Origin: Lentisphaeria bacterium
GTDB lineage: Bacteria > Verrucomicrobiota > Lentisphaeria > JABSQK01 > JAWLHB01
Assembly: GCA_041690595.1 (NCBI GenBank)
Contig: JAWLHB010000005.1
Location: 1-64,000, forward strand
Direction of reading: 5' to 3'
DNA length: 64,000 bases
Positions 9,483 through 52,395 of this stretch are shown one piece after another; the stretch's first letter is position 1; each line of letters begins with the position of its first letter. A model generated the notes under the pieces. The model was given only the letters and a program-made list of their open reading frames with translations, was not told the origin of the DNA and ran no database searches. Position numbers and translations under genes: made by a program.

Positions 9483-9515
9483 GCCAGTGGTTCCGTGTTG
9501 ACGTTTCGAATCCAT

Positions 9516-9543
9516 ATAATAATAAGTGCTCCCGATTTGTCAA
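9516..9543 (-). promoter_or_regulatory. Sigma70-type promoter of abiEi
   Basis: Minus strand TTGACA-16 nt-TATTAT. Confidence 0.6.
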
Positions 9544-13617: not shown

Positions 13618-13702
13618 GCAGGTGGATGACTTTCTCCAGCACCTCCGGGCGAAAGCCGGTTGCCTCGGACTCATTCATCAGACGTTCACGGGAGAGTCTC
13701 AT
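13526..13702 (-). pseudogene. abiEii: Second truncated AbiEii toxin remnant
   Basis: ATGA-coupled to the antitoxin; MRLSRERLMNESEATGFRPEVLEKVIHLL resembles AbiEii N-termini (GF....LEK), but similarity ends near 13613, before the KGGTA nucleotidyltransferase motif. Confidence 0.7.
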
Positions 13703-14499: not shown

Positions 14500-15014
14500 C
14501 GGTATAACCCTGACTTGATGATATCTGCGCCAACTGTAGGAAAACATAACACTTGAGGCGCTTGTCATCAAGTCGAACTGCCGTTCAGCCGGGGCACGGT
14601 TCGGCAACGCCGGAATGCGGTGGGGCCGGATTTTGCCGTTTTTCCGGTCGAACACGGCATAGAGAATGGTGAACGGCGTTGCGGGCCACCTGTCGTGCTC
14701 GTGCGTGGAGGGCTCCGACGTCGGGATGATGCGGGGGTGTCAGAAGCCAGCGTTAAGCAGACCGCGGGCGGGATGGGGGGAATGGGGCGAACCGCTGATT
14801 CTTGGGGGGAGAGAGCCGGGAATAGAGTTTTCCGGGCCGTAGAAACGGAGAGTCAACTGAGAGTCCGAGCGAGAGAAGGCGGTTCCAGGGCAGGGGTGCG
14901 CCCTGAACGAGGGGGCGGATAGAGTGCGGAGGCGGTCACCGTTGGCCGTCATGTCGTCGCCGCCGGAGTCGCAAATGCCTTTGGGACAGCGGGATTTGCG
15001 TGCCAGGAAACGAA

Positions 15015-15067
15015 ACAGCCCCCGCGAACGGGGGCTGTAAACGAAAAGGCCCCGATGTCTCGGGGCC
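15015..15067 (-). terminator. Tandem rho-independent terminators at the end of the defence operon
   Basis: Perfect hairpins ACAGCCCCCG-CGAA-CGGGGGCTGT (15015-15038) and GGCCCCGA-TGTC-TCGGGGCC (15048-15067), each followed by a T-rich tract on the minus strand. Confidence 0.7.
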
Positions 15068-15289
15068 GAAAGGAAATGGCTCCGGACTTTTTCTCGGCGT
15101 CGTAGATTGCCAAAGAGTGAACGGTAGCAGGGATCGGAGCGGTTTCCGTCCTTTCCCATGCGAATCCTCGCCAGCCTCCGACCTTTCCCACCAGGACAAC
15201 TCTCGAACCGGGTCACTCTGTGACCGCCGGGGGTCTGCGCGGCTTTGAGCCAGGCCAGCGCCGGGCGCTTAACGCTCTCCACACCGAGG

Positions 15290-17524: not shown

Positions 17525-19296
17525 GGTTCCGCCTCCATCGCGGCAAGCTCACGTTCGAGGCATTCAATCCCATCCGCCGTAAGCGCCAGAATGCCGTCCT
17601 CCTGCTTTTGCATCCATCCGAGGTCTAGGAGTACCTGGATGGCACTGCGGAACCGGGGGTTCGTCACGCCAATGGCATCGTACGGGATGCCGCGTCCTAT
17701 GATCCGCCCGCGCTCCGTGTGGAACAGGATCTTCCCGCCGGAGCGGCTCTTGTCATAGGCCAGCGTCTCGTGTTGCCGAACGACGAATCGCTGAATCAGT
17801 CGTTTCCCCAGTTCGCGGAAGGGAACGCCCAACCAGTTGTCGTAGTGCGTGACGAGATCCTGCAGGACCAGGGGCACGGTGATGTCTTCGGACGCATCGT
17901 AGACGTTGTTCAGCAGCCAATCCGACTGGGGCTGGTCTCGCCAACCCGCAAACCGAGCCGTGACGACCGCCGACAATAGCAGAGATAACGCGATTCCCTC
18001 TGGGGTGTGAAGAATGTTCCGGTCGCGAAGCAGCGACTCGATTCCTGTCTCGGAGAGCGCATGACCAAGCCTGGCCAGCACGTCGAGGGAATCGTTCCAC
18101 TCGGGATGCGTGCCATCGGTCGCAATGCCGACGGCATGCGCAACGTCGGCCAGTGAAAGATCGATGAACAAGCCCGACAACTGACAACCCAAGTGCTCGC
18201 TCAGTCTCTCGGCGACATGACGACTGTCGAGAGGACTGATCAGGTCGTCCAGTGTGAAGCCGCCGAGTCCCGCATCGAGACCCTCGCGGACGACGCTCAC
18301 AAACAGCCCTTCCAGCGCCACCGACAGGTAGTAGTGGGCATGGAACAACCGCCACCTCCTGACGATGTCGTCCAGTGCTGCGGGCCACTCGATGTCAATG
18401 ACCGTTCCGTCGGGGCCATACGCCTGATTGAAGTAGGTTGTCGTGGCGAACGTAACCTCGTCCAGGATGATCTCCTGCGAGGCCAATCCGGATGCGAGAA
18501 ACAGGAATGCGATAATTGAGTCGTGCCGGAACCGGTGCGAATTGCGGCTGTTGCCGCCGACCCTCAAGAACATCGTCCGCAGCTCCTGCAACTCCGGCGC
18601 ACGTCCCGCAGCCAGGGCGCACAGCCCGGCCGCCTTGCCCCACCCGTCCAGTTCCTCAGGTGTCACTTCAGGACGAGACCGGGTAACGGCCGAGGCAACA
18701 GACGCTCCCGACACTGCCGTCCCGAAGAGTCGAGCCAACTCCGCGCCCGCCGGGGAAAGCAACAGGTCGTCTTCGGTGAGTTGCTCCGCGTCAGGGGATT
18801 TATCTGTCTCCTCATCTTCAGCGCCATCAGCCTCGGGTGCTGCACCGGCGAACAGGTCCAATCCTGCCAGCGATCCCTTGTAGGCATCCCAGGCCAGGTT
18901 CTTGCTCAGCTCAACCTTGTCGAGCCGCAGTGCATCCCCAGCGTTCGCCGCGACGACGTGCGCCGCTTCGCGTGATCCGATCAAGCCTCCCCCTTCACAG
19001 GGCTGGCCGCCATGGTCGAATGCACACCCAAGAGTCAGGGCGCGTTCACGAAGAAGGAGTGCCATCCGGAGACCGCCGTCGAGTGCGGTGCCTTTGACGC
19101 GGTCGAGGTAGTCCGCCACACACCAGGTCAGGAAGGAGTAGTAACGAGCCCGCGGGGTGATGGAGGTGATGCAGTAGAGAAGCTGGGCACCCAGCCGTGC
19201 CCCGACCCGCAGGTTCAACCCCAATGGGTCCTGCTCGGACGGGTTGGCCGTCTTCTCGCTCCAGTGGAGTAGAACTGTATCACCAGACTCAGCCAT
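17521..19296 (-). CDS. Hypothetical defence-associated protein with DPLG...TSITPRARYYSF motif (possibly DUF6361-related)
   Basis: 591 aa; N-terminal QDPLGL and ITSITPRARYYSF; C-terminal wHTH-like RFRSAIQVLLDLGW...LTADG; overlaps both neighbours. Confidence 0.6.
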   Translation of the reverse strand: MAESGDTVLLHWSEKTANPSEQDPLGLNLRVGARLGAQLLYCITSITPRARYYSFLTWCVADYLDRVKGTALDGGLRMALLLRERALTLGCAFDHGGQPCEGGGLIGSREAAHVVAANAGDALRLDKVELSKNLAWDAYKGSLAGLDLFAGAAPEADGAEDEETDKSPDAEQLTEDDLLLSPAGAELARLFGTAVSGASVASAVTRSRPEVTPEELDGWGKAAGLCALAAGRAPELQELRTMFLRVGGNSRNSHRFRHDSIIAFLFLASGLASQEIILDEVTFATTTYFNQAYGPDGTVIDIEWPAALDDIVRRWRLFHAHYYLSVALEGLFVSVVREGLDAGLGGFTLDDLISPLDSRHVAERLSEHLGCQLSGLFIDLSLADVAHAVGIATDGTHPEWNDSLDVLARLGHALSETGIESLLRDRNILHTPEGIALSLLLSAVVTARFAGWRDQPQSDWLLNNVYDASEDITVPLVLQDLVTHYDNWLGVPFRELGKRLIQRFVVRQHETLAYDKSRSGGKILFHTERGRIIGRGIPYDAIGVTNPRFRSAIQVLLDLGWMQKQEDGILALTADGIECLERELAAMEAEP

Positions 19297-40537: not shown

Positions 40538-40747
40538 TCATTCCTCTTCGGCCTCCTGGCCATCGCCGTCCCCGCCGCTTCCGGCGCGGACCCATTCGTC
40601 GATCTCCGACAGCTTGAAGCGGAACAGACGACCGACCTTGTGTGCTGGCAGGCCCTTGGCCTCGATCCAGCGATAGACCGACTCGCGCCGCACGCCCAAA
40701 TGTGTCGCGGCCTCGCCGACATCAACCCAGCGCTCTTCAGTGCTCAT
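40538..40747 (-). CDS. Excisionase-like HTH regulator leading the defence operon
   Basis: RWVDV.EAA.HLGV.RESVYRWI...LPAHKVGRLFRF...EIDEWV. Confidence 0.88.
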   Translation of the reverse strand: MSTEERWVDVGEAATHLGVRRESVYRWIEAKGLPAHKVGRLFRFKLSEIDEWVRAGSGGDGDGQEAEEE

Positions 40748-40801: not shown

Positions 40802-40829
40802 AATATATTACGCGCATGCTCAATGTCAA
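40802..40829 (-). promoter_or_regulatory. Sigma70-type promoter for the HTH-hsdM operon
   Basis: Minus strand TTGACA-16 nt-TATATT. Confidence 0.6.
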
Positions 40830-41131: not shown

Positions 41132-42697
41132 TCAGGCGCGCCCTCTTCTGATGAGTTCTTCCTTGATCTTGCCGTTTATTCCGAGAATGCGCGTAGCCTT
41201 TTGGGCGACATCCCAGTTCCGATCAAGAACTAACGCGAAGGCCATTGGGTGACTGTTTACATAGCCCTTAAAACGGCCGTTGGTACCCAAGTGGTCATCT
41301 ACGTCCTTAAGTTGCCATTTTCGCTTGGACGGGCACTGCTCTAATAGCTTAATGCAGACCCGAATGTACTCCCGTATCTTCCCGAAATCCGCACCCATCT
41401 CGTGGAAGCTATCAGGGCACACAAGCTCCTGGCTCCCGCTCTGTTCAGTGTCTACTGATGGTACGACAGGTAGATGGCTCACGGACAGCTTAAGGCGACC
41501 TTCAGCCGCTGCCCTCGGGAGGGCATAGTCCATCAGCAGCCCCCTAAGGTCCCGAACTCCCCCATCCTCGAAATCCCAAGTCTCAAGTGCGTGTATCGCG
41601 GAGTTTCCAAGCGTGATCTCTGTGCCTCTTTTCGAGTTCCATTCTTGCACAAAGCACTCCGCCAGAAGAATAATGTCCTCTCGTCTCTCAGCAAGGCTCG
41701 GAACGGTGAATTGGAGTGTCTTTATGCGACTGTAAAGGTCACTTCGGAATCGCCCTGCTTTAACAAGCTCATCTAGGTTTCGATGCGTTGCAAGAATGAA
41801 CATCGACTGGGTCGATCTCTGTTTCGCCTCCCCAACCCGGCGATATGTTCCGTTATTCAAAACACTCAACAAAACCCCCTGGACGTCAAGCGGGAAGTCC
41901 GCAATCTCATCAAGCAGAACAGTCCCTCCGTTGGATTCCTCTATGGCCCCCGTTCGGTCTTCATTCGCGCCAGTAAACGCGCCCTTGACGTGTCCGAAGA
42001 GCTGAGATCGAATCAAGTTAGGGTCAGTCTCAGTCAATGTGACGTTGCGAAACTCACCAGAAGTAAGCTCAAGATTCATCCTTGCCCGATGTAGGGCCTC
42101 GGCAAGATATGTCTTCCCTGAGCCGATTTTCCCTCCCAGGACTACAACTCTAGAATCAACATGGGGGGATAGCTCCGATAGAAACTGTTGCATGGCTAAC
42201 GAACGGGTCGGGATTTGAGCAATCAGTTCTTTGACGTAACCGTGCCGTTCCCCCGCACACTTCCGCAACTGCGTCAGAACAGCACTCTTCAAATCATCGA
42301 TTACAGAGGCTCCTTCAAGGTCCCCTTTTTCAGCGAAGACGATCCGATCGAAATGCTCTCTACGCAGATGATTGTAGGCCTCATCAACTCTTGTTCCTGC
42401 TCTGCTGTCGTAAACTTCTCCCTCAAATGCCGTTGTCACGAAGACCACCGCAGAGTCGCTTTTTGCCAGAATCCAGCTAGCGTATCCGACACCATCACCA
42501 TCATCCAGCTTGTGGTCTACAATGGCAATGTCGACAGACCTATTTTCGCTTAGTGCCTTAGCTTTTTTCTCTCCAGATGCTTCCAGGATATCCAGGGATA
42601 GGTCGGGAACAGTCGTAGCCCATAGTTGAAATTGGCTTCTCCAAGCGAAACGCAAGCTCGCGTTGTTCTCCAAAATCATCACAGTGGTATTCGGCAT
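41132..42697 (-). CDS. Sigma54-dependent response regulator (REC + AAA+ bEBP)
   Basis: REC with IVDHKL; Walker A GKIGSGKT, LFGHVKGAFTGA, LDEIAD, ATHRNL, GRFRSDLY. Confidence 0.9.
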   Translation of the reverse strand: MPNTTVMILENNASLRFAWRSQFQLWATTVPDLSLDILEASGEKKAKALSENRSVDIAIVDHKLDDGDGVGYASWILAKSDSAVVFVTTAFEGEVYDSRAGTRVDEAYNHLRREHFDRIVFAEKGDLEGASVIDDLKSAVLTQLRKCAGERHGYVKELIAQIPTRSLAMQQFLSELSPHVDSRVVVLGGKIGSGKTYLAEALHRARMNLELTSGEFRNVTLTETDPNLIRSQLFGHVKGAFTGANEDRTGAIEESNGGTVLLDEIADFPLDVQGVLLSVLNNGTYRRVGEAKQRSTQSMFILATHRNLDELVKAGRFRSDLYSRIKTLQFTVPSLAERREDIILLAECFVQEWNSKRGTEITLGNSAIHALETWDFEDGGVRDLRGLLMDYALPRAAAEGRLKLSVSHLPVVPSVDTEQSGSQELVCPDSFHEMGADFGKIREYIRVCIKLLEQCPSKRKWQLKDVDDHLGTNGRFKGYVNSHPMAFALVLDRNWDVAQKATRILGINGKIKEELIRRGRA

Positions 42698-42701
42698 CTA
42701 T

Positions 42702-44363
42702 TTACCTCCCTTCATTGAGTGGAAACGAAAAGCGCACATTCGCCCTGAATGCCTCAAAAGGATCGCCAAGCCAAAGCTCGCCTCCGAGCAAGCGTTCAGA
42801 AAGGTAACGACATATCCAGATACCTCGCCCTGTTGTCGGAGGATCACTCTCGAGTTCAGCTTCGAAGAACTGCTTCTTCTTATCATCATCAATGGGACAT
42901 TCACTCAAGCAACCAAACTCAACGCGACAATCTTCGAGCACAACCTCGAGGCGAAGGGAACGGTTCTCAGGTTGGGCAATTGCATTGCGCATTAGGTTTG
43001 CCATCACAATGTGACATGGCCACAACTCAGGGATGTCGGAGTCATCGTCCCATGGTCCAATAAACTCACAGGACTCAACCTGTGCAATTTTCCAACAATT
43101 TCCAAATGCTCTTGCCATTTTCCGGAGTGTGTTTCTCTCGTTTGGCCAGCACTCCCTTCGAGGGTCCCAGAGAACATCCATGCTGTTGGCCATCATCGAA
43201 AGGAGGGTGTCTGCGCGAACACTAAGCAAGGCTCGTCGGACCAAAGCGTCAGCCGAGTTGCCGTCAGTCGGCACAAGCTCAAGAGCCAATCGCACTTGCG
43301 ATTGCACGCTTTCAGCCAGATTCTTGAGGTCATGCCGCAGCACAGCATGCCCCAGGCGCGCCATCGTGGCACGGCGAACAAAACTGGCTACGTTGTAGCC
43401 GACCTGACTGTTCACCAAGGAGACGACAATACGCAGAATGCTCTCAACACGCAAGGTGATATGGGCCGCTTCCTCTATGTTGTTATCCTCAACTTGTATC
43501 GCAAGAAACACTTCGGTCATGAAGCGTTCAGAGCCACATGCATAAAACATGGGCACTCGTGCATAGAAGTTACACTTGACCGCTCTGCCTGGATCAGGAA
43601 GACCTGGGAACTCCTCTGCCCGTCTCAAGCGGACAAGGTCGCTGAAGGTCTTGAATCTGCTGCCCGCAGTGCTCTCATCCTCTCCCAGGAGACGCCCCAG
43701 TGTCGTGCACGGTGTATGCGATGCAGTTGCCATCCTCGACGCACATGAGCTGACCACTACGTGGCCATTCGGTAACGGCGAAAAGCACACAAATCGTGTG
43801 ATTTCATTGCTACTTGGCACAAGGCAATGGCTGTGTTGAACTCCGTGTTCGTGGCGTTCAATTGGAGACAAGCGGTAGAGCCAAGCCTTTTCACTGAGGT
43901 CTCCAACAGCCTCGATGTCGCTCCCACGTAAGCGTTGAGCCAGAATTGATGGCGCATATATGTCTGCGATATGTTCTGCGCCGCCCTCGGAGAGCTCTCG
44001 CTCATGAATGGCGTCTATGATATCCGTATCGCCCGTCCTCAGTGCAATCCAGTTGCGCGTCGCCACGGTGTCCATGCTACGGAACGAGATAGGCAGCGAC
44101 AAATGAAACACGATCCATCCCAACGCCTCAAAGTGCTTTTCATTGGGCAAGGAAGCATACAGAAGCGCACCCAACTCCGTCAGGTCGTTTCCTCTACTGT
44201 CGGCCTTGCCAGATGGAGCTTTGAGACACTCCAGAAGCTCATGCGCGGGAACTGTATCACTTCCAACGTTAGATCGTTTGGATTCTGCAGACTCAGCCAA
44301 CTGGCGCTCTATGTGGTAGAGCGCACTGAGAACTGATGACTCAAGCTCTTGCGACATAGACAA
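42702..44363 (-). CDS. Soluble sensor histidine kinase (atypical)
   Basis: H-box RHDLKN, N-box NLMRNA, G2 box GRGIWI; no transmembrane segments; adjacent to the response regulator. Confidence 0.65.
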   Translation of the reverse strand: MSMSQELESSVLSALYHIERQLAESAESKRSNVGSDTVPAHELLECLKAPSGKADSRGNDLTELGALLYASLPNEKHFEALGWIVFHLSLPISFRSMDTVATRNWIALRTGDTDIIDAIHERELSEGGAEHIADIYAPSILAQRLRGSDIEAVGDLSEKAWLYRLSPIERHEHGVQHSHCLVPSSNEITRFVCFSPLPNGHVVVSSCASRMATASHTPCTTLGRLLGEDESTAGSRFKTFSDLVRLRRAEEFPGLPDPGRAVKCNFYARVPMFYACGSERFMTEVFLAIQVEDNNIEEAAHITLRVESILRIVVSLVNSQVGYNVASFVRRATMARLGHAVLRHDLKNLAESVQSQVRLALELVPTDGNSADALVRRALLSVRADTLLSMMANSMDVLWDPRRECWPNERNTLRKMARAFGNCWKIAQVESCEFIGPWDDDSDIPELWPCHIVMANLMRNAIAQPENRSLRLEVVLEDCRVEFGCLSECPIDDDKKKQFFEAELESDPPTTGRGIWICRYLSERLLGGELWLGDPFEAFRANVRFSFPLNEGR

Positions 44364-45141
44364 CCTCCTGGCTTAGGGCGACGTGTTGCGAGGGCATGGC
44401 CGCCATGAACTCAACTGAACGGAATCCGGCTTCCATGAGTAGCGAAAGCATCTCGTCCTGGGTGTAAATCCGTATCGAGTATTCCCGGCTAGTGGCATGC
44501 CCCTCCTTCTCAATCCTCCACGTTCCGTGCAAAACGCCATTAGTCATATCAAAGTCTTCATCAATAAGAAGAATGCCACCATGTGTAAGGTGCCGTACAG
44601 CCCTGTCCCGATATTTTCCTGAGTAGGCCAAGATGGGATTGACGTCTGTGTGCATGAGTAAAGTGCCTCCTTGGGCCAACGAAGAACGAAAGCCCCGCAA
44701 GGCCGCCAGATTCTCGCTGTCGCTTGAGAAGAAACCAAACGACAGAAACATGTTGATGCACAGATCGAAAAGTCCAATCTCGGGAAGTTGACGCATGTCT
44801 GCTTGAATAAATACAGGGGCCTCACGTTTACAGCGTGATGCCGCTGAGCGGGCCTCGTCGAGGAATTGTGGGCAAAGGTCAATACCAGTAACACGGTATC
44901 CCCGTCTTGCCAACTCATTTGAATGTCGACCATAGCCGCATGGACAATCCAGAATCCGGGCCCCCGAACCAGGTTGAGCTATTGCTTCAATCATATCACA
45001 CTCGCGTTTCGTTCGGGTCGTTAGATCTTGGCAAACATCAATCAGGTGTCCCTCCTGCGAATCATCGCCTTTCCGGTATACAGCGGGGAAGAAAGTGTCT
45101 GGCTTAGTGCTGTCCCACCATGGGGATTTTGATCTTGTCAT
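44341..45141 (-). CDS. Class I SAM-dependent methyltransferase
   Basis: ILDCPCGYGRH, TGIDL, ADMRQL, SFGFF; start placed at MTRSKS. Confidence 0.88.
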   Translation of the reverse strand: MTRSKSPWWDSTKPDTFFPAVYRKGDDSQEGHLIDVCQDLTTRTKRECDMIEAIAQPGSGARILDCPCGYGRHSNELARRGYRVTGIDLCPQFLDEARSAASRCKREAPVFIQADMRQLPEIGLFDLCINMFLSFGFFSSDSENLAALRGFRSSLAQGGTLLMHTDVNPILAYSGKYRDRAVRHLTHGGILLIDEDFDMTNGVLHGTWRIEKEGHATSREYSIRIYTQDEMLSLLMEAGFRSVEFMAAMPSQHVALSQEVVYVARA

Positions 45142-45169
45142 ATCGGCGGTATATGCCTTTAATAGTCGG

Positions 45170-46846
45170 TTAGAGTTGCTGCAACAGGATTTTCCCTTCA
45201 CCCACGATATACGTGCGTTCGGCAAGGATAGAGACTCGCATGTCATGCGAGGTCAACAGTATCACCTTTTTGGTGCCCAATGCCCGGAAGAGCGCAGCCA
45301 GTTTCTCAAAGTTTGTCTGGTCCAGGCCTGTTGTTGGCTCATCAGCGAGGACAATTTCCGCTTCCGACAAGATCGCACAATAGAGCGACACACAGTGGGC
45401 CTCGCCCCCAGACAAACATTGAACTGGTTTCAGCCAGAAGGGATCGACTTGGGATTTGATTGGCGAAATGTTCAGCTCTCCGAGCTTTGAAAAGAGCGGC
45501 CCGAGGACGACTTCCGGGTGCATGGCCTGGCGGTGCGCTTTTGCCCCAGACCATGACGCAAACAGGCTCTCCACGACAGAAAGTCCTTCCGGTGCCTGTG
45601 CCTCGCCGTCGACTTTGCTGCTTCCGAGGGTCTCCATTGGATTTTGCAGCAGTATATAGCACGGCCTCCGCTGTGGCGGAAGATGCAAAAAGCTGTCGCC
45701 GTTCGAACTGATGTCGCCGCCTGAAGCATGAATTGTACCCGCGATAGTCTTGAGCAGAGTCGACTTGCCCGTACCATTCGGTCCACGAATAAGGTTGATC
45801 CCTCTGTGAAATTCTGCTGATGCTTGGTCGAAGACAATTCGCCTCTCCGAACCAATGTCATAATGCACTGACAGGTTAACCACGCTAAGAATGTCGTGAC
45901 GCCTGGCTTTGCAGAAAGATAAACTTGCTGTGATCCTGGATAATGATGGCATACGGGCAAGCGATAGCATGAGTAAGACCGCGAAGATCAGTTTCCACAG
46001 CATCGGATTCGGTGACTTAGAAATAGTTATGAAAAGGAGCGTTTCAAAAAAGACAGCTCCAATTAAAGCCAAGACGCTTGGGGAAAGAAGGATTGAGCTC
46101 AAGAGATGCATGCGTGGTGAAAACGACAGAACGCTTGAGGAACTTGATCTTCTAAAAAGGCGCCCGGATAGGCGAATCAGATCAGCTATACGAGCAACAC
46201 AAAGGAAGGAGCACAACGAAACCAGCAGAAACTCAAATGAACCGCCACTTTTTGCCATTCCTTGCGAGTGAGCATAGAGCGATCCCCCTATGCCATAAAG
46301 TGTTCCCGATAGGCAGTAGGCAGCGCATCGCAATAGCGATGACGAATACACAGTATTGACACGGCATCCCGTACCTAGCTTTCTGGCTGCCAAGCCGAAG
46401 CGGCTATTGTATGCAGCGAAGGCCGCTATACCAAGAATTGCAACGAGCACCGGCTGCCACCACTGGACTGTGCCGAATCCCCTGAAGAGCACCGTGTCGG
46501 GCATCACAACGGATTCTCCAATGAGAACTACCGAGACGGAATGTGACGCAAGGCTAAATATCACTCCGGCCATCAAAACGTTGATTCCAAGATGCGCATG
46601 CAGAGTTGAGACAAACAGAGAAAGCAGCGCGCCTGTCGCAGTCCCTGCTGTGATGGACAGAAAGTATGAGCCGGAGGCACGCCACACTATGGCGCATGAT
46701 ATTCCAGACAGAATGGCTATACCGTCTACACTGACATCCAGTTCTCGGAAATATGTGTAGAGAAGTCCCACTCCTAAGACGATAGGGAACCAGAGAAGGC
46801 CATCTGCGAGACCTATACGGAGGATGTCGGTTAGACTACCGGTCAC
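45170..46846 (-). CDS. Fused ABC transporter permease + ATPase
   Basis: N-terminal multi-TM domain (DVSVDG, INVLMAG) of BPD_transp_2 type; C-terminal GPNGTGKST, LSGGE, LADEPT, SHD in the same ORF. Confidence 0.85.
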   Translation of the reverse strand: MTGSLTDILRIGLADGLLWFPIVLGVGLLYTYFRELDVSVDGIAILSGISCAIVWRASGSYFLSITAGTATGALLSLFVSTLHAHLGINVLMAGVIFSLASHSVSVVLIGESVVMPDTVLFRGFGTVQWWQPVLVAILGIAAFAAYNSRFGLAARKLGTGCRVNTVYSSSLLRCAAYCLSGTLYGIGGSLYAHSQGMAKSGGSFEFLLVSLCSFLCVARIADLIRLSGRLFRRSSSSSVLSFSPRMHLLSSILLSPSVLALIGAVFFETLLFITISKSPNPMLWKLIFAVLLMLSLARMPSLSRITASLSFCKARRHDILSVVNLSVHYDIGSERRIVFDQASAEFHRGINLIRGPNGTGKSTLLKTIAGTIHASGGDISSNGDSFLHLPPQRRPCYILLQNPMETLGSSKVDGEAQAPEGLSVVESLFASWSGAKAHRQAMHPEVVLGPLFSKLGELNISPIKSQVDPFWLKPVQCLSGGEAHCVSLYCAILSEAEIVLADEPTTGLDQTNFEKLAALFRALGTKKVILLTSHDMRVSILAERTYIVGEGKILLQQL

Positions 46847-48270
46847 GGGGCCTCCTCCACAGTTGCGTCGCGGATATCAAAGTGTCTCTTCATGGCAATG
46901 GCTTCCTGCCAGACTCGGAAAACCTCTTCCCGGGGCATTTCTTCGAGGTCGAAGACTGGTGGCTCGTTGTACCTGCCCCAGAACTCCCACTGAGGCGTGT
47001 CGGACCAGAATGGAGCGTGGGGAATCAGTCCGTAGTTCTGAGGCGACGAGAACATGGGCAGGCCAGGGTACGGAACAAAAACTGAGCAATCCACATAGTC
47101 CAATAGGTGATTGTCGAAAAGCGACTCCATTAGCTCAAGAGTTTTCTGTGCGCTCGCAGCGGTCTCGCCGGGATAGCCAAACATGAAGAATGCGCCAGTC
47201 TTCAGCCCAGCACTCTTCGCGGTCGCCAGTTTTTCGCGCACGACGAAAGTGGTCTCGCCTTTCCCCATTGAACTCAGCATGCTTTGGTCCGCGGTTTCAA
47301 GTCCTACCCAAACGGCCCTGCCCCCCGCAGCGCGGAACGCTTGCGCGCCAGAAGCAGAGATCATCTGCAAGCGGGTTAGAATGTAAAAGTGCTCATCAAG
47401 CTCGACCTCAGAGAACGCCTGGGAACAGAACGTGGAGAACTCACGATGCCGCATGTCAATGATGCTGTCCCCCAGGCCATATACGCGCACTCCCAAAGCT
47501 CTCAACGCGCGAAGCTCATCATTTACGCAATCAGCCATGCGATGAAAACGAACTCGGTCAGCCTGCCAATAGAGGGATTCGAGACAGAATGGGCAAGAAT
47601 GTGAGCAACCACGGCCAGCCATGACTACTGCCCCATGGTCAGGTTCTATCTGCGAGTGATCACACAGCGAATAGTCAATTGGAGGAGGCGGAACTCCGTT
47701 CGCGCGGGCAGATTGCCCAAACTCGGCTGGACGGCCGGGGGTTGCGATTCCGGGGTAAAGGAAACGCAAACTGCGGTCTTCAAAATGAGCAAGTATATGT
47801 TGTAATTTGGCTTCTCCTGGCCCGAGTATCACAGCGTCAAAAGGACTTGTGGGGTCATGAAGCAGGGACTCAGACATGAAAGATGCGTGGGGCCCTCCGG
47901 TGATAATAGTGACATCATGCTTTGCGGAGCGGCAGCAACGAGCCGCATAAATAGCCCAGTTCGCCATGTTGGTATAAGGAGCGACAATGCATATCAGCAC
48001 AGGGTCCGTTGCGGCAATAGACTCGGTCAGGGTCCGCTCAACACATTGAGCAACACCACGCGAGTTTTGCTCTGAGGGCGGTAGCCTGTGAACTGCTGCG
48101 TCAAGGTTGATTACTTTTGGCAGCAGGCCGGATGACTCGCCCCAATCCCTGATGCAGGTGGCTATCAGGACTGCTGTCCGGGGAAAACCATAAGTGAAGG
48201 AAAAAGCAGGCTCCGCAGAGAGCGTGCCAAATGCCTCCATCGCGATGACTAGAGCGTTTTTCACGAGCAA
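46843..48270 (-). CDS. B12-binding-domain radical SAM enzyme
   Basis: GGPHAS and GPGE cobalamin-domain motifs; GRGCSHSCPFC (CxxxCxxC); GLET, FGYPGET, PYPG. Confidence 0.9.
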   Translation of the reverse strand: MLVKNALVIAMEAFGTLSAEPAFSFTYGFPRTAVLIATCIRDWGESSGLLPKVINLDAAVHRLPPSEQNSRGVAQCVERTLTESIAATDPVLICIVAPYTNMANWAIYAARCCRSAKHDVTIITGGPHASFMSESLLHDPTSPFDAVILGPGEAKLQHILAHFEDRSLRFLYPGIATPGRPAEFGQSARANGVPPPPIDYSLCDHSQIEPDHGAVVMAGRGCSHSCPFCLESLYWQADRVRFHRMADCVNDELRALRALGVRVYGLGDSIIDMRHREFSTFCSQAFSEVELDEHFYILTRLQMISASGAQAFRAAGGRAVWVGLETADQSMLSSMGKGETTFVVREKLATAKSAGLKTGAFFMFGYPGETAASAQKTLELMESLFDNHLLDYVDCSVFVPYPGLPMFSSPQNYGLIPHAPFWSDTPQWEFWGRYNEPPVFDLEEMPREEVFRVWQEAIAMKRHFDIRDATVEEAP

Positions 48271-49326
48271 TCACTCGCCGCCGAAGATGACCGCCCCGTC
48301 GCGTATGTCTCCAGGTAGCGGAGGAAGACCAAGCTTCTGCCAGGAATCGGCGTTGAAGTAGGCACTGGCAGTATCCTGCTGGATGATTGGCATGGTCCTT
48401 GGGTTGGTTCCCTGCATTATCTTGAGGCAGGTTTCTGCTGTTATTCTGCCTATATACCCATAATCGACAGACACACCATATGCAGCTCCGTCTTTTCGAA
48501 CCGTTCCATCGTCCAGCGAAAAGACAGGAACGGGTCCATTCGGGGCTTCCAAGCCAATCTTAACAACGGTGGGCGCCTTCTTTATGACGTATTTGTCGTG
48601 AGGAATGATCAGCAACTGAGCCCCCTCCAACACCAAGTTTCGAGCAACTTTGTCGACATCCTCCTCGCTCGTGACGATGCCATCGATAACTTCTATCCCA
48701 ACTGCTTCGAGCGCCGATGATATTTTCATGGCTGTGTTCTTGGAGTTTATCTCCGCGTTGTTGAACATGACCCCAGCCTTCTTGATGTCCGGAGTGACCC
48801 GCCTGATCAGATCGGCACCAAAACTGTAGGCATCTTGTCGGGGCATGTCGGTCAACACGGCTACGTCTCGGGAGCGCGGAGGATCCAGGCCAATCGCTGT
48901 CAGTTGCTCAACTTTGCTCGGATCTGAGATGCAGGAACTCACTACAGGAGGGAGGCTACCGGCGTACCGCGGTGCCAGTCCCGTGTTAGTGAGCTGAGTT
49001 CCGACCAGAACCAGAACGTCTGGATTCTTGAGAAGGGCAGCGTTGACTACGGTCTGGAAACGAGTTGGGTCACCCTCTGCGCTGAAGTAGCTAACATCGA
49101 CGCCTTCTGCCTCAAGCACCTCCCTGGCTTCCTTCTGGAACTGAAGAAAGGCGTCAACTGTGACGGGAAAGACAGCAGACACTGTGCGCGGACCGGCGGG
49201 TGCGGCGGGTGCGGCGGGGGTAGTTGGCAGTCTCGTTTCGGAAGGTTGCCGCAGTGAAATGAGCAAGCCGATCACGCTTGCAGTAATGATACCAATTAGT
49301 ATGCCGAGTTTTACTTTTCTGCTCAC
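48271..49326 (-). CDS. ABC transporter substrate-binding protein (ABC_sub_bind, aromatic amino acid-binding-like family)
   Basis: N-terminal membrane anchor, Pro/Ala linker, SAEGD, ISDP, N.AE.NS, VDY...G motifs; GTG start. Confidence 0.8.
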   Translation of the reverse strand: MSRKVKLGILIGIITASVIGLLISLRQPSETRLPTTPAAPAAPAGPRTVSAVFPVTVDAFLQFQKEAREVLEAEGVDVSYFSAEGDPTRFQTVVNAALLKNPDVLVLVGTQLTNTGLAPRYAGSLPPVVSSCISDPSKVEQLTAIGLDPPRSRDVAVLTDMPRQDAYSFGADLIRRVTPDIKKAGVMFNNAEINSKNTAMKISSALEAVGIEVIDGIVTSEEDVDKVARNLVLEGAQLLIIPHDKYVIKKAPTVVKIGLEAPNGPVPVFSLDDGTVRKDGAAYGVSVDYGYIGRITAETCLKIMQGTNPRTMPIIQQDTASAYFNADSWQKLGLPPLPGDIRDGAVIFGGE

Positions 49327-49408
49327 GTGCCACTTCCGTTTCTTCTGTTATTTCTCACAACCCCCAACTTCCCTGGTCGCTGCCGACTGGCAAGTCGTTA
49401 CATGGCAT

Positions 49409-49425
49409 AGCAGATCGCGTGCCAA
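49409..49425 (-). promoter_or_regulatory. Sigma54 (-24/-12) promoter
   Basis: Minus strand TTGGCACGCGATCTGCT with exact GG-N10-GC spacing, about 80 nt upstream of the first operon gene. Confidence 0.85.
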
Positions 49426-49512
49426 CCCCGATTGGCTTGCATCAATTCTGGAGTGGCGAGGTCGATGTTGCTGTAAGGTACCACCCACAGTGCATTTCTA
49501 TCGAGATCACAA

Positions 49513-49559
49513 GGTAAGTCCTGACTTACCAAGTGTGTCCTGGTAAGCCTCGACCTACT
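49513..49559. promoter_or_regulatory. Tandem palindromic upstream activator-like sites
   Basis: Perfect GGTAAGTC-CT-GACTTACC (49513-49530) and degenerate GGTAAGCC-TC-GACCTACT (49542-49559), roughly 115-160 bp upstream of the predicted transcription start. Confidence 0.7.
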
Positions 49560-49628: not shown

Positions 49629-50174
49629 TCACCAGTGACCACATCGAAGTCGTCTGCACAGTGAGGCGCATTCCATGTGGTAGACCCAGGCGGCTTCGAC
49701 GCCCGTGTTGGCTCTGACGGCCACCAGGGTGCGACGGTAAAGTCCATGGCCATCCGGGCGGAACCCCTCGAGGCGGTCCAGCGGCGGCAGGTCGCGTTCC
49801 GGGTCCGGAAAGGTGATCAGCTCGCCGTGGACGGTGTCCCAGCCATCGGCGGCCTCCGGTATGACCAGCTCGCGCGCCGCGAACTCGGCCTGCGTTTCTG
49901 TATCCGCCAGCGGGTCGCCGGTGCCGACGGCCAGGACCGTCTCCTCGGGAATCTCCAGCGCCGGGAACCCGGCGGGCAGATCATAGAGGCGTCCGATAAT
50001 AGTGGCAAGACGGATGTCGATGGCGTGACGACAGAACCTGTCGTGGTTTGTTGCGCCCTGCCTGCGGCAGTGGCGGCCTTCGGCCAAGCCTGCGGCTTGC
50101 TCTCCGTTCGCTTCGCGAGCCGTAGTCCACCGCCCGCTTTTCAAGGTTCCGTAAACAAACAGTGTGATGGTCAT
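49629..50174 (-). CDS. Gamma-glutamylcyclotransferase (AIG2-like) with in-frame insertion
   Basis: LFVYGTLK, VHGEL, LDRLEG....LYRR, AWVY. Confidence 0.88.
   Translation of the reverse strand: MTITLFVYGTLKSGRWTTAREANGEQAAGLAEGRHCRRQGATNHDRFCRHAIDIRLATIIGRLYDLPAGFPALEIPEETVLAVGTGDPLADTETQAEFAARELVIPEAADGWDTVHGELITFPDPERDLPPLDRLEGFRPDGHGLYRRTLVAVRANTGVEAAWVYHMECASLCRRLRCGHW
50049..50126. repeat. 78-bp multi-hairpin palindromic element inserted in frame in the GGCT gene
   Basis: Four consecutive triloop hairpins: CTGCC-TGC-GGCAG, GGCC-TTC-GGCC, AAGCC-TGC-GGCTT, TCGC-TTC-GCGA. Confidence 0.7.
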
Positions 50175-50983
50175 GGGGTGATTCCTTTCGTTACGATAGT
50201 GCGCTGGCGTGACTGCGCGACAAAGGCGAGCCGGTGGGCTTCCGGGGCGAAAACGTCCTCGTGGCGGAAGACCAGCATGGTCATGGGGTCAACGACCATC
50301 GGCCGCCAGTCGTGCGGCTCGCGGTAGCTGGCGTCGATGGCGTCGTCGAGAACCGCCGCGTCGGTGGCATAGGCCACGGCGCGATGTCGGCGGCTGTAGC
50401 GGAACTCGAGCGGCTTGTTGCCCTTGAGTACCACCACCCGGCCCGGCGCGCCCACGGCGGCCAACACGGCCCCGATCTGGCCCCGGCACGGCGCGACCAA
50501 CCGCAGGAACGTTTCCGCATCGAGCATCCCGTCGCGAACGGCGGCATCGGCCAACCGGAAGAGCAGCTCGCTGTCCACCTCCGCCCCGCGCATCAGGCGC
50601 AGCCGCCGGAACAGGTCGTCGGCATTGTAGATGGTGCCGTTGTGCGTTCCGATGACCTGCCCGGCGCGGATCGGGTGGTTGTTCCGGTTGTTCTTCTCGG
50701 TGCCCCGCGTCCGCCAGCGGTTGTGGCCGATGATCGCCGTGGCCTTGTTGTCGAACCTGGTCAGCGCCTCGAAGAAGGCCTCGTGGTCGATGAACCGCCG
50801 GGCGGGCAGCGGGCGCTTGGCGATGGCGTGGTTGCCGTCGTCGCGCAGGACGGCGACCCCGGTGGCATGGGGCCCGCCGCGTTCCGAGCGCCAGAGCATC
50901 TCGGTGAAGATGTCCAGCAGGATGTCGTGCTCGGGAAAGCGGCGGCGCTTCCGGCCGAGAATTACACCTACCTGTCTGCACAT
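50171..50983 (-). CDS. Class II (Ntn) glutamine amidotransferase
   Basis: MC N-terminus after AAGGAGG RBS; G.HATG, GHNRWRT.G, NNHP, HNG.I.N, EVDSE. Confidence 0.88.
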   Translation of the reverse strand: MCRQVGVILGRKRRRFPEHDILLDIFTEMLWRSERGGPHATGVAVLRDDGNHAIAKRPLPARRFIDHEAFFEALTRFDNKATAIIGHNRWRTRGTEKNNRNNHPIRAGQVIGTHNGTIYNADDLFRRLRLMRGAEVDSELLFRLADAAVRDGMLDAETFLRLVAPCRGQIGAVLAAVGAPGRVVVLKGNKPLEFRYSRRHRAVAYATDAAVLDDAIDASYREPHDWRPMVVDPMTMLVFRHEDVFAPEAHRLAFVAQSRQRTIVTKGITP

Positions 50984-51114
50984 GATGCGTCCTCCTTCAG
51001 TTGATGGTTGGAGATGCAGCCAGGTCGGATGATGCCTAGTTGCCGCTCTCCCGCCGAGGCGGGATCGCTGCGGCCTGTGGCCGCCCGTCTCACTTCGTTC
51101 GGCTGCCTGCACAT
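50968..51114 (-). pseudogene. Interrupted duplicate of the GATase 5' end containing a 63-bp palindromic insert
   Basis: GAGGAG RBS then MCRQ-[insert 51040-51102]-LGII, paralleling MCRQVGVI of the intact gene; stops after 48 aa. Confidence 0.55.
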
Positions 51115-51428
51115 ACGGTGGTCTCCTCTGTTTCCGCTGGCTCCGGCAGCATGTCGTCGGGCAGGAACTCGATGCGCCCGTGCTGGGCCAGACGGGTCAG
51201 GAACTCGATGTCGGCGGTTTCCGCGTTATCGGGAAGCGGCCTGCGTTCCGGGCCTTCGGCATGCAGAAGGACCTCGTCGCGGTATTCGGCGACGGGCAGT
51301 TCCCCGCTGAACGGGGTCTGCAGGCGCATCAGCTCGACGATGGCGGACGGGGTTTCGGCGGCGATGATCGTCCCGCTGCCGGGGATCGATTTGCCGTCGG
51401 TTGTCTCGGGGTGGATCTGGATTCTCAT
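51090..51428 (-). CDS. Hypothetical protein of the amidoligase module
   Basis: 112 aa, GAGG RBS, located between the amidoligase and the GATase. Confidence 0.65.
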   Translation of the reverse strand: MRIQIHPETTDGKSIPGSGTIIAAETPSAIVELMRLQTPFSGELPVAEYRDEVLLHAEGPERRPLPDNAETADIEFLTRLAQHGRIEFLPDDMLPEPAETEETTVCAGSRTK

Positions 51429-51489
51429 GGCGTTGTCCTCTCGTTTGGGGCGAAGCGGGCGCGTTGGCCCGCCCCGCCCGGTTGTTGGT

Positions 51490-52395
51490 TCAGGCGTTGG
51501 CGTTGGCTGCCGTCTCGGGGCGTCCGTTCTTCCAGGCGGCGCTTCCCGGCATGTTGGCCATCAGGTGGAGGCGCGCGGTCTTGAACTCGTCGCCGATCAG
51601 CCCGAGGCGCAGGAGCCAGCATCGGAAATCGTACTTGGCGCTGGTGGCGCTGAATTCGCGCTTCTTGCTGGAGGCGGCGCGGGCGGTCAGGGCCTTGGCG
51701 GCGATGGCCAGGCAGAATTGGATGTAGGCCTTGACCTTCCCGGCGTGGAGCGTGGATTCGAAGTAGCGGAACTCGACCGTGCCCCGGTACCAGACATTGT
51801 GCAGGTTGACCCCGTGGTACCTCGAGCTGTCGTAGTGGTGCGGGTTGCTGTTGTGGTACCCGTACCAGAGGCGGTTGAGTTCGTCGGTCGTGGTCGGGCG
51901 GCTGGCCTCGATCTGGCGGATCAGGTGGTCTTCAACCGGGCGGGTGTAGCGGCGCTGGCGCGCGTCGCTGACCCCGAGGGCGTGGAGGATCAGGGGCTCC
52001 TGCTTGTAGACCATCTTGGCGAGGTTGCCCAGGCGTCGCCCGTCGAAGGGGGCGGCGTCGATGTGGATGTGAATCCCGCAGGTGGAATCCACCCGCGCCC
52101 CGGCGCGGCGAATGGCGCGAACGACCTCCTGGAGTTGCGCGATGTCGTCATATCCGAGAACCGGGCTTACAACCTCGGCCTGCAGGTTGCGCGGTACGTT
52201 GGTCAGGGAGGCGTCGGCCATCACCTTCCAGGTCCGCCCGCGCAGGTCGGTGATGTGCCAGGGATCGTAGCAGGCGGGCGTTCCGGCGTGGGTTACGGTT
52301 CCGCCGACCACCGAGTGGATCGCGTAGGCGACCTCGCGGCGGGTCTTCTTTACGGTCTCTACTTCAAGTCCGAATCTGATCTCGCGCAGGTCCAT
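51490..52395 (-). CDS. Phage-associated amidoligase (COOH-NH2 ligase, Amidoligase_2)
   Basis: [45 protein letters not shown]. Confidence 0.92.

Follow-up and report, generated by a model that had tools for sequence, protein, structure and literature searches.

A rare six-gene cassette in a Lentisphaeria genome couples a predicted importer and two SAM enzymes to a sigma54 two-component pair

Sigma54 circuits that activate their own transcription are already known, glnA-ntrBC and zraSR among them. In such NtrB/NtrC-type systems, a kinase with DHp and CA domains is paired with a REC-AAA+ activator carrying GAFTGA, the promoter is of the -24/-12 type with palindromes upstream, and the regulators are encoded inside their target operon. 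Aromatic amino acid importers of the PF04392 type (TrpX, CD0873 of C. difficile, VC_1101 and SP1069) are defined by a shared family of binding proteins. Class B radical SAM enzymes (QCMT/MgmA, structure 9CCB, TokK, TsrM, CysS and PhpK) have a B12-binding-type Rossmann domain and a CxxxCxxC core in common with AprD4. Finally, NmbA is presented with structure 9RI2 as N-methyl-bacillithiol synthase, and the amino group of the cysteinyl moiety is given there as its target. Here we describe a gene cassette that combines relatives of all of these in a stretch of 64,000 nucleotides from a Lentisphaeria bacterium (contig JAWLHB010000005.1), referred to below as the window.

The cassette (41132–49326; Table 1) consists of six tightly packed genes, all on the minus strand. 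A preliminary description had listed these genes with their domains, and ORF and Pfam checks recovered all of the domains and all ORFs as placed. Junctions measure 0, -4, -77, -23 and +4 nt in upstream to downstream order. The GC content of the cassette is 52.8%, below that of both flanks, as had been claimed (59.3% on the left and 67.0% on the right), and that of the whole genome is 61.5%; in three loci the cassette is AT-richer than neighbouring DNA. The left flank is a defence island (type I R-M, ABC-3C CTD7/DUF3732, PLD and AbiEi), and the right flank carries phage-type genes (amidoligase phrog_2443, E 1.8e-92; GATase; GGACT). The cassette was thus correctly placed beside a defence island, whereas on its other side, where a prophage module had been reported, phage-type genes were found. 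Composition and context fit horizontal acquisition, but a search for mobility genes inside the cassette and for repeats flanking it, which bears on the suggested carriage by a mobile element, found neither.

Table 1. Positions of the cassette genes and upstream elements, counted from the first letter of the window.
Feature	Position	Strand	Remarks
PF04392 substrate-binding protein, N-terminal membrane anchor	48271-49326	-	PF04392 78 bits, E 9.4e-22
Radical SAM enzyme, N-terminal B12-binding-type domain, class-B-like	46843-48270	-	
Fused permease (BPD_transp_2-like) and ABC ATPase	45170-46846	-	ABC_tran
Class I SAM methyltransferase	44341-45246	-	Methyltransf_25
Soluble histidine kinase: N-terminal domain of ~300 residues, then DHp and CA	42702-44363	-	
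REC-AAA+ sigma54 activator	41132-42697	-	Sigma54_activat E 5.4e-44, GAFTGA intact
Sigma54 -24/-12 promoter TGGCACGCGATCTGCT	49409-49424	-	Start 98 nt upstream of binding-protein start; TGGCACGCGATCTGC at 49410-49424
GAATTGATG element	49440-49448	-	15 nt upstream of TGGCAC
Two overlapping palindromes	49513-49547	-	Candidate enhancer for activator, ~90-120 nt upstream of -24 element
Palindrome CTTACCAGGACACACTTGGTAAG	49525-49547	-	
Palindrome GGTAAGTCAGGACTTACC	49513-49530	-	

A synteny survey returned 11 metagenome loci with relatives of the radical SAM enzyme. In the four with a close relative (40–60% identity; L006, L007, L008 and L009), the binding-protein gene lies directly upstream and the transporter gene directly downstream of the radical SAM gene. 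Methyltransferase and then kinase genes follow the transporter in L007, L008 and L009, and L007 has a sigma54 activator gene as well. L008 has the same sequence as L009, so that three of these loci are independent. The gene set is absent from the remaining seven (radical SAM 21–25% identical), which yielded one weak ABC match and one weak methyltransferase match. Two distant loci, L020 and L021, keep the binding protein, transporter and methyltransferase and lack the radical SAM gene, which is outside the widest conserved core. Identity ranks L006 > L007 > L009 > L020 > L021 for every gene, as expected if the genes are inherited together. Among billions of proteins, the families are also of similar size: the radical SAM enzyme has ~15 close relatives that form their own clade, always beside the transporter wherever context is readable; the transporter has 17, with a sharp drop beyond; and the kinase has 23 in 1.84 billion representatives. 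Moreover, five radical SAM/transporter pairs have equal longest contigs (28199, 36536, 31423, 14050 and 6633). Co-occurrence of the genes elsewhere with promoter and upstream motifs, which had been put forward as the check on this locus, was found in three independent metagenome loci, and this supports the six genes as one conserved, co-inherited unit. A search of 20 related genomes found the transporter in none; the cassette is rare and horizontally moving. Of the proposal that this is a new system, the rare and recurrent gene set holds up, whereas a self-activating sigma54 circuit as such is not new.

The surroundings bear on a conflict or defence function, by which the cassette would deplete or alter a metabolite that phages need, or detoxify an imported antimetabolite. 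Besides the defence island and phage-type genes that border the cassette in the window, genes for DarT, ADP-ribosylglycohydrolase and a UvrD fragment adjoin it in L007, IS21 adjoins it in L009, and the distant loci adjoin PRTase-CE (L020) and iREC (L021) genes. However, any accessory gene set ends up in such islands, and the PADLOC matches are generic only, mad2/mad3 being called on the folds of the methyltransferase and the ATPase, and RtcR on the AAA+ core. A binding-protein-dependent importer is not known as part of any defence system. We consider a defence role quite unlikely, and any link to prophage induction would be speculative.

The binding protein has a single TM-like segment (residues 7–25), which forms its N-terminal anchor, and its PDB relatives are CD0873, VC_1101 and SP1069 (E 4.8e-17 to 6hni). 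These relatives bind Tyr, Phe and Trp, in agreement with the earlier remark that the family includes aromatic amino acid binders; for the TrpX equivalog, the score is 91 bits and the cut-off 390. All six aligned binding proteins share D272 and Y289. These residues map onto two specificity positions, at which the cassette protein, with an acidic residue and a Tyr, comes closest to the Tyr binder (Glu263/Tyr279). This mapping derives from pairwise alignments of weakly similar sequences in which two mappings fitted the spacing, and we used the mapping on which two structures agreed. On the best reading of these residues, the substrate would be an aromatic amino-acid-like compound.

In the transporter, Walker A, LSGGE, Walker B and H-loop motifs of the ATPase can all be read in the sequence, along with 8 TM-like windows, some of which overlap one another. 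The Pfam search did not find PF02653 on the protein in the window and detected it on orthologues (L021, E 1.1e-5), where the BPD_transp_2-type permease is thus shared with PF04392-type importers. In contrast to those importers, the cassette fuses permease and ATPase in a single chain, which is expected to work as a homodimer, and its operon also encodes the two SAM enzymes and a sigma54 two-component pair of its own.

The radical SAM enzyme matches the Pfam models Radical_SAM (42.6 bits) and B12-binding (33.3 bits; cut-off 32.1), and all 16 sequences compared retain the cysteines of its CxxxCxxC motif (C222, C226 and C229). Its nearest solved structures are QCMT (9ccb, E 2.2e-20) and AprD4 (6fd2, E 9.2e-20). 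TsrM, to which the preliminary description had likened it, is far more distant (E 3.2e-8), and we rejected a TsrM-like identity. None of the NCBIfam families reaches its cut-off, the best being PhpK with 72 bits against 600. AprD4, which is not known to need cobalamin, is as close as QCMT, so that cobalamin use by the cassette enzyme is putative. The host does use B12, as judged from two cobalamin riboswitches and 8 B12-binding domains in its 97%-complete genome, in which CobS was not found.

Homologues of the methyltransferase begin to align at ATG 45141, which is probably the true start; starting there turns the -77 overlap with the transporter into a 28-nt gap. Among solved structures, NmbA (9ri2, E 3.3e-19, residues 86–278) comes nearest, followed by proteins that we take to be mostly amine N-methyltransferases (CypM, OvsM, DesVI, CalS10 and ToxA). 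The similarity to NmbA and the amine-directed natural-product methyltransferases, its nearest kin, is modest and the acceptor atom is not readable from sequence; the cassette enzyme is probably N-directed. Unlike that comparison set, its gene accompanies that of an ABC importer, at 5 independent loci besides the window.

Two such enzymes could instead belong to a RiPP or natural-product cluster, tailoring an endogenous peptide or metabolite while the ABC protein provides export or immunity. QCMT, the nearest solved radical SAM enzyme, methylates a protein residue, and three radical SAM paralogues (P0013–P0015) have an equal contig size, 10644. There are also weak NCBIfam matches to ApyD (E 5.6e-20), a daptide methyltransferase (4.7e-14) and TIGR03975 (7.9e-12), but all of these lie far under the family cut-offs. 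No supported ORF of precursor size was found within the operon or adjoining it; of its five junctions, four are overlaps or ≤4 nt and one is at most 28 nt. The binding protein and BPD_transp_2-type permease argue for import. This makes a tailoring cluster very unlikely.

The kinase has no TM-like segments. Its HATPase_c match (21.2 bits) is below the Pfam cut-off of 26.4, and the modelled DHp and CA region has a fold match at Z 14.4 and Foldseek E values down to 5.6e-9; ChpT-type phosphotransferases align equally well with this region (4fpp, Z 13.9, 192 residues). H344 and N460 are invariant across the aligned relatives. The G1 box reads GCLSE in the alignment and not DxGxG, so ATP binding may be poor. 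For the N-terminal domain, the best structural match of the model is the LasR ligand-binding domain (Z 6.3), and GAF or LuxR-LBD structures make up most of the 50 matches listed, all with Z under 8, the tool's reliability line. The domain also gave a GAF lead at 0.87 and has 19 invariant positions, many occupied by aromatic or charged residues; domain and homology searches matched no described family. It is predicted to be of ligand-binding type, with a weak resemblance to GAF and LuxR ligand-binding domains. The claim of a kinase lacking membrane segments and suited to cytoplasmic sensing is borne out in that the protein is soluble, with a true DHp and CA fold and a ligand-binding-type N-terminal domain.

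By analogy with transporter-coupled two-component systems, the kinase might instead report flux, docked to the transporter or to an enzyme of the cassette, with no free ligand. It lacks a membrane segment and is always encoded after the transporter and methyltransferase. In L020 and L021 a large protein is encoded after the binding protein, transporter and methyltransferase, with a weak GHKL-like N-box in L020 (hhalign E 0.02, probability 2%) and an H-box-like SHNIGSH string in L021; the similarity of these large proteins is, however, far below significance. The likeness of the N-terminal domain to a pocket for small molecules, in which aromatic and charged residues are invariant, also speaks against flux sensing, which we judge to be rather improbable.

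The REC match of the activator (20.9 bits) is below the cut-off of 30.2, and in the window its acid pocket has E-N in place of D-D, whereas the L007 orthologue has a canonical pocket. Its C-terminal 130 residues have no homologue, no Pfam match and no recognised family, and only a weak HTH_8/HTH_50 lead (0.85–0.86); homologue and Pfam searches detected no DNA-binding domain. The pair thus differs from NtrB/NtrC in an activator without a detectable Fis-type HTH and in a kinase with a sensor domain outside described families and an atypical G1 box, and the NCBIfam equivalogs are all far under their cut-offs.

Directly upstream of the cassette, the sigma54 promoter and two palindromic sites of the preliminary description are present in the window, and upstream motifs are conserved in related loci. 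The promoter is near-consensus (10 of 12 specified positions), and the stricter pattern TGGCAC-N5-YTGCW occurs at only 30 sites on both strands of the 8.1-Mb genome, which has two rpoN genes. L007 carries TGGCACGCTGCTTGCT as a sigma54-type promoter at the equivalent position. The 9-mer GAATTGATG, whose coordinates were counted off from the placed promoter, also occurs in L007, 14 nt upstream of TGGCAC. The palindromes take the forms CTTACCA-N9-TGGTAAG and GGTAAGTC-A-GGACTTACC; the genome has GGTAAG-N4-8-CTTACC at 2 sites, and the other form is unique to this locus. An 80-nt stretch holds three copies of CTTAC/GTAAG where 0.044 would be expected (Poisson P 1.4e-5), and similar motifs lie at equal distance in L007, L009 and L020. 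The syntenic metagenome loci thus likewise combine a sigma54-type promoter and CTTAC/GTAAG sites ~100 nt upstream of it.

Such an arrangement could also serve a quorum-sensing-like module, in which an amino-acid-derived signal is imported, both enzymes convert it into what the LuxR-LBD-like kinase actually binds, and the output is a self-amplifying switch that is regulatory rather than metabolic. The best sensor-domain matches are LasR, RhlR, CepR2, TraR and CviR (Z 5.7–6.3), the regulators are encoded within their own target operon, and the cassette has no obvious downstream catabolic genes. Yet every Z is under the reliability line, a signal synthase is absent, and with GGTAAG-N4-8-CTTACC at one other genomic place only, the genome shows no sign of a regulon extending past the operon. 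The L009 kinase is interrupted by a premature stop and the regulator there is truncated after REC, whereas the enzymes and transporter persist, and the regulators are thus dispensable there. Any quorum-sensing role would be putative, and we regard it as unlikely.

We favour, with about an even chance of being right, a horizontally acquired six-gene operon that imports a small molecule, modifies it and regulates its own transcription. The membrane-anchored PF04392 protein would capture a tyrosine-like aromatic compound with a polar distal group outside the cell and pass it to the fused permease-ATPase homodimer for import. In the cytoplasm, the NmbA-like methyltransferase (probably N-directed) and the class-B-type radical SAM enzyme would modify it; we infer the direction of transport, the identity of the substrate, and the reactions and their order. 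The soluble kinase would bind substrate or product, the putative ligand, in its GAF-like N-terminal pocket, autophosphorylate on His344 and transfer the phosphate to Asp61 of the activator. The activator is predicted to assemble on the GGTAAG/CTTACC palindromes ~100 nt upstream and to open the sigma54 promoter, which would drive all six genes. The regulator genes lie inside the operon that they would activate, so that positive autoregulation of the cassette, with the predicted feedback, is the natural reading.

Judged by gene order, the six genes of the cassette form a real unit, and the chances are about even that this unit is an autoregulated operon for the uptake and modification of an aromatic amino-acid-like compound. 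ORF calls and translations place six ORFs, all on the minus strand, where the preliminary description had put them, and Pfam agrees with its domain assignments for every gene, with HATPase_c and receiver matches that are sub-threshold. From binding protein through radical SAM enzyme, fused permease-ATPase transporter, methyltransferase and histidine kinase to sigma54 activator, the junctions measure 0, −4, −77, −23 and +4 nt; starting the methyltransferase at the ATG at 45141, where alignments of its homologues begin, turns the −77 overlap into a 28-nt gap. These junctions leave no space for a precursor gene, and the only short ORFs, which are without support, coincide with parts of the promoter region or of the 3′ flank. 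A RiPP-type cluster is very unlikely.

A search with a radical SAM profile retrieved 11 metagenome loci. Four of them carry a close relative of the window enzyme (L006, 60% identity; L007, 50%; L008 and L009, 40%), and all four have the binding protein, radical SAM and transporter genes in identical order and orientation. Genes for the methyltransferase and kinase come next in L007, L008 and L009, and the last gene in L007 encodes a sigma54 activator. L008 and L009 are identical in DNA sequence, so the number of independent loci, not counting the window, is three. The synteny that had been proposed as a check is found elsewhere, and it excludes chance juxtaposition. Identity to the window drops in one and the same locus order for every gene, and the other seven loci, with radical SAM proteins only 21–25% identical, are without the gene set.

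The radical SAM, transporter and kinase families resemble one another in their small size. The radical SAM enzyme has 15 relatives at 34–60% identity before scores fall from 314 to 90 bits, the transporter has 17 before scores fall from 279 to 79 bits, and among 1.84 billion representative proteins the kinase has 23. Five radical SAM/transporter pairs have a longest contig of equal size, which is indirect evidence of further co-occurrence. The radical SAM profile found no relative in the species-representative genomes scanned, the transporter profile found two distant loci only in such genomes, and a search of 20 related genomes found the transporter in none of them. Three radical SAM paralogues (P0013, P0014 and P0015; 34–39% identical to that of the window) share a longest contig of 10644, which suggests that they stand in tandem on one contig. 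In the regulator part of the L009 cassette (6045–8050; likewise in L008) a stop cuts the kinase short after codon 469, with the frame still recognisable to codon 529, and the response regulator stops after its receiver; next come an Ldh_2 gene and IS21. Decay thus seems to affect the regulators, with transporter and enzymes intact. Directly after the L007 cassette and on the opposite strand (10863–14006, minus) are genes for an ADP-ribosylglycohydrolase-glyoxalase fusion, a DarT-family ssDNA ADP-ribosyltransferase and a UvrD fragment, a group that resembles toxin-antitoxin or defence modules of the DarTG kind.

The sigma54 promoter and two palindromes described earlier upstream of the first gene are both present (see table). 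The strict promoter pattern occurs at 30 sites in the 8.1 Mb of the host genome, counting both strands, and both palindromes are near-unique genome-wide. The host genome has two rpoN genes (two Sigma54_DBD genes), so that the −24 GG / −12 GC promoter and the genomic rpoN of sigma54-dependent transcription units are both in place. These elements are also conserved with the genes, as the preliminary description had suggested examining. An equivalent promoter site, TGGCACGCTGCTTGCT, lies 77 nt before the binding-protein gene of L007, and L009 has a weaker promoter-like TGGCATGTTTCTCGCT. Inverted repeats of the CTTAC/GTAAG type lie ~100–120 nt upstream of the promoter GG in the window (3 in 80 nt vs 0.044 expected, P = 1.4e-5), in L009 (3 vs 0.083 expected, P = 8.9e-5) and in L007, which has GGTAAC/GTTACC variants instead and only 1 exact match (P = 0.11). 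The window and L007 also have GAATTGATG in common, 14–15 nt before TGGCAC, and in the distant locus L020 four CTTAC copies lie ~100–150 nt upstream of a sigma54-like TGGCTCAGTTTTTGCG. A second TGGCAC-N5-CTGC match, which falls within the radical SAM gene near its 5′ end (48215–48229, minus), is not conserved in L007 and is thus probably due to chance.

Upstream elements of the cassette and distant loci of the wider family
Feature	Source	Position	Strand	Sequence or remark
sigma54 −24 GG / −12 GC promoter	window	49410–49424	−	TGGCACGCGATCTGC; motif read upstream of first gene
sigma54 −24 GG / −12 GC promoter	window	49409–49424	−	TGGCACGCGATCTGCT; same motif
Palindrome	window	49525–49547	−	CTTACCAGGACACACTTGGTAAG
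Palindrome	window	49513–49530	−	GGTAAGTCAGGACTTACC
L020	Acidobacteriota MAG	8961–16853		transporter 35% identity to window
L021	Tannerella MAG	9011–19271		transporter 31% identity to window

The activator has a canonical AAA+ core (Sigma54_activat, PF00158, E = 5.4e-44; E about 1e-37 to the LuxO, FleQ and NtrC structures) with the motifs GHVKGAFTGA, GSGKT (Walker A) and LLDEI (Walker B). It thereby shares the AAA+ sigma54-interaction domain of bacterial enhancer-binding proteins, with the GAFTGA loop intact; the L007 orthologue reads GAFTDA at this position. Response_reg reaches 20.9 bits, under the cut-off of 30.2; D61, T88 and K124 are readable and the acidic pair is E10-N11, where the L007 orthologue has DD in the acid pocket. 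Searched with Sigma54_activat, the genome yields 29 matches, of which the best 23 have E = 3.4e-21 or lower; among the 29, the window activator is one of the most divergent (153 bits vs 195–248 for the 20 best in the genome). Its last 130 residues (385–521) have no homologue and no Pfam match at E up to 10, with a weak HTH_8/HTH_50 lead (0.85–0.86), and binding of the activator to the palindromes is on that account put forward as something it may do.

The binding protein belongs to ABC_sub_bind (PF04392, E = 9.4e-22; 78 bits vs a cut-off of 25.9) and has one anchor helix in a hydropathy scan. A PF04392 binding protein is the feature that the cassette shares with TrpX importers; against the TrpX equivalog NF041285 it reaches 91.3 bits, under the cut-off of 390. 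The family does include binders of aromatic amino acids, as had been stated from the sequence alone: the solved relatives of the window protein are CD0873, which binds Tyr, VC_1101 (Phe) and SP1069 (Trp) (PMC6816091, PMC10443332). Two specificity positions, Glu263/Tyr279 in CD0873 and Ala246/Tyr262 in VC_1101 (PMC6816091), correspond to D272 and Y289 of the window protein in two HMMER alignments, which are pairwise and between weakly similar sequences; both residues are invariant in 6 of 6 aligned binding proteins. The pair closest to D272/Y289 is that of the tyrosine binder CD0873, and the ligand may therefore be tyrosine-like with a polar distal group. An initial mapping of the CD0873 residues to R277/R294 was rejected because it clashes with the VC_1101 alignment, whereas D272/Y289 fits both proteins. 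In the transporter, ABC_tran lies behind a hydrophobic N-terminal half with 8 TM-like windows (hydropathy scan), and the ATPase motifs (Walker A, LSGGE, Walker B, H-loop) are all intact. PF02653 (BPD_transp_2) was detected on orthologues, on which its assignment to the window permease rests, the window's own permease half having no match to it even at E = 10. Together with the presence of a binding protein, this argues for import as the direction of transport.

Two SAM enzymes would act on the imported compound. The methyltransferase (Methyltransf_25 in Pfam) has 9RI2 as its best solved relative (E = 3.3e-19), and the next structure matches are ToxA, CalS10, CypM, OvsM and DesVI, which we take to be mostly N-methyltransferases. 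The 9RI2 paper identifies this structure as NmbA, an enzyme that N-methylates bacillithiol at its cysteinyl amino group. In the radical SAM enzyme the CxxxCxxC cysteines C222, C226 and C229 are invariant, PF04055 (Radical_SAM) scores 42.6 bits vs 29.5 and the N-terminal PF02310 (B12-binding) 33.3 vs 32.1. The enzyme thus shares CxxxCxxC and an N-terminal B12-binding domain with class B radical SAM methyltransferases, features that do not decide cobalamin use from sequence. Its nearest structures are 9CCB (E = 2.2e-20), which is QCMT, and AprD4 (9.2e-20), a cobalamin-independent enzyme as close to it as QCMT is. The identity of 9CCB and the homology of MgmA to QCMT are taken from PMC12931638 and PMC11796369, respectively. 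TsrM, offered earlier as the example enzyme, does not hold up: the profile reaches 6wte at E = 3.2e-8, 12 orders weaker than QCMT or AprD4, and the TsrM family is absent from the 15 NCBIfam matches. No NCBIfam model comes near its cut-off with this enzyme, and we found no support in weak NCBIfam matches for BzaC/BzaD-type benzimidazole methylation (BzaD, 37 bits vs 450), BchM/BchE tetrapyrrole chemistry or PhpK P-methylation. ArsL/ArsM was considered as well and rejected. The host itself uses B12, since its genome carries two cobalamin riboswitches as well as 8 B12-binding domains. A search of this genome, which is 97% complete, did not find CobS (PF02654), and the host may depend on imported corrinoids.

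The kinase has no TM-like window in a hydropathy scan, and its AlphaFold model has a pLDDT of 81. Its DHp+CA core (residues 335–553) aligns with RetS, ThkA and VraS (VIA Z 14.4; Foldseek E = 5.6e-9 to 8e-6 for the core), and 16 sequences without exception keep H344 (in RHDLKN) and N460. HATPase_c scores 21.2 bits, under the cut-off of 26.4; the N and G2 boxes are present, and the G1 position, in an alignment read by eye, is atypical in the window subgroup, with GCLSE, not DxGxG. ChpT-type phosphotransferases align to the modelled core as well as true kinases do, which makes activity as a kinase likely without making it certain. The nearest outgroup of this core, P0167 (1154 aa) and P0173 (1028 aa), consists of a radical SAM/SPASM enzyme fused to a C-terminal histidine-kinase-like domain. 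The N-terminal 300 residues, modelled alone (pLDDT 82.9, pTM 0.84), have no Foldseek match at E ≤ 0.001 and weak VIA matches (best Z 6.3); LuxR-type autoinducer-binding or GAF domains make up most of the 50 VIA rows, in line with an ESM Atlas GAF lead at 0.87. The domain has 19 invariant residues, many aromatic or charged, including W83, F86, H87, R103, N104, W105, H120, Y136, W161, F240, Y267 and R269, and may form a small-molecule pocket.

Other readings of this arrangement take it as a device for sensing. A switch that serves signal processing is unlikely, and sensing of transport through protein contact with the kinase, in place of a ligand, is about equally unlikely. In a further proposal, an external aromatic amino-acid-derived cue would be imported, the two SAM enzymes would add methyl groups to it at N and C positions, and only the converted form would fit the LuxR-LBD/GAF-like pocket of the soluble kinase, driving a sigma54 positive-feedback loop; such a portable import-and-convert switch is a long shot.

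The cassette also has a wider family, represented by the distant loci L020 and L021 retrieved with the transporter profile. Both keep the binding protein, fused transporter and methyltransferase and have no radical SAM gene, which is why the oldest core is, as far as these loci tell, import plus methyltransferase; the radical SAM enzyme, GAF-like kinase and sigma54 activator mark out the subgroup of the window. After the core, each locus encodes a large uncharacterised protein, of 804 residues with a weak GHKL-like N-box in L020 and of 1073 residues with the string SHNIGSH in L021. The similarity of these proteins to the kinase is not significant, and the AAA protein of L020 is not similar to the activator; neither was accepted as a counterpart. 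In L020 the neighbouring genes encode PRTase-CE, the AAA protein and an aminotransferase; the neighbours in L021 are genes for iREC, asparaginase-like and amidase proteins.

The low GC content noted earlier for the cassette is borne out (52.8% vs 59.3% in the left flank, 67.0% in the right flank and 61.5% genome-wide), and in three loci the cassette is AT-richer than neighbouring DNA. We found no mobility genes marking the cassette itself and no convincing insertion-marking direct or inverted repeats around it, short two-copy matches only. Of the setting proposed in the preliminary description, between a prophage module and a defence island, the island on the left stands; the right flank is phage-like, with a whole prophage not demonstrated. 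The dense island (13699–40438) comprises a type I R-M system whose hsdM, hsdS and hsdR are broken up by genes for a DEAD-type helicase, an SLFN/AlbA_2-Fic-like protein and an unknown protein of 521 residues, together with a YgjP-like peptidase, ABC-3C (CTD7, DUF3732), AbiEi and two further proteins, one with TPR and one with a PLD domain. Such a context prompts the reading that the cassette itself has a role in conflict or detoxification. That role is improbable: PADLOC returned no system-specific model match, generic folds only (mad2, mad3, RtcR AAA+ core and PDC-M51A at 1.7e-5), and no matches for the binding protein or kinase. MADS, also considered, is unsupported.

Immediately 5′ of the type I R-M methylase gene, a 69-residue HTH_17 ORF (excisionase/AlpA-like, E = 1.7e-15; 40538–40747, minus) starts the next transcription unit past the cassette, with a near-consensus sigma70 promoter (TTGACA-16-TATATT, 40802–40829, minus). 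On the right, a phage-typical trio on the same strand as the cassette (49629–52395, minus) encodes an amidoligase (PF12224; phrog_2443, E = 1.8e-92), a class II glutamine amidotransferase and a gamma-glutamyl cyclotransferase, its last gene ending only ~80 nt before the cassette palindromes; this flank also encodes a 1590-residue Laminin_G_3 protein.

Each part of the proposed uptake-and-modification operon belongs to a known superfamily, and its circuit logic (a two-component system, sigma54 and regulators in the target operon) is already familiar. Full-text searches, with subscription journals outside their coverage, did not find the gene combination. Within that literature, the conserved combination, the methyltransferase-tied fused PF04392-system transporter, the radical SAM clade and the kinase sensor domain are undescribed. 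The combination that the preliminary description did not recognise is undescribed there, and it is not a near-certain new system.

The cassette is of interest mainly because, if our reading is true, the chemistry of three orphan families would become testable at once, with a single operon and a single ligand screen: the class-B-type radical SAM clade, the fused PF04392-system transporter and the soluble kinase, whose sensor domain is new. It would be unusual for a radical SAM enzyme to act on an imported, not endogenous, substrate, and the conserved promoter and enhancer offer a reporter with which the inducer could readily be sought. The import-and-convert switch, if true, would represent a new class of chemical-signal perception in the cytoplasm, with genomic islands next to phage and defence genes as its carriers. 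More broadly, the pairing of transporter and methyltransferase spans the host organism and one MAG each of Desulfobulbaceae, Acidobacteriota and Tannerella, which hints at a general ‘import then methylate’ strategy as yet undescribed in the searchable literature.
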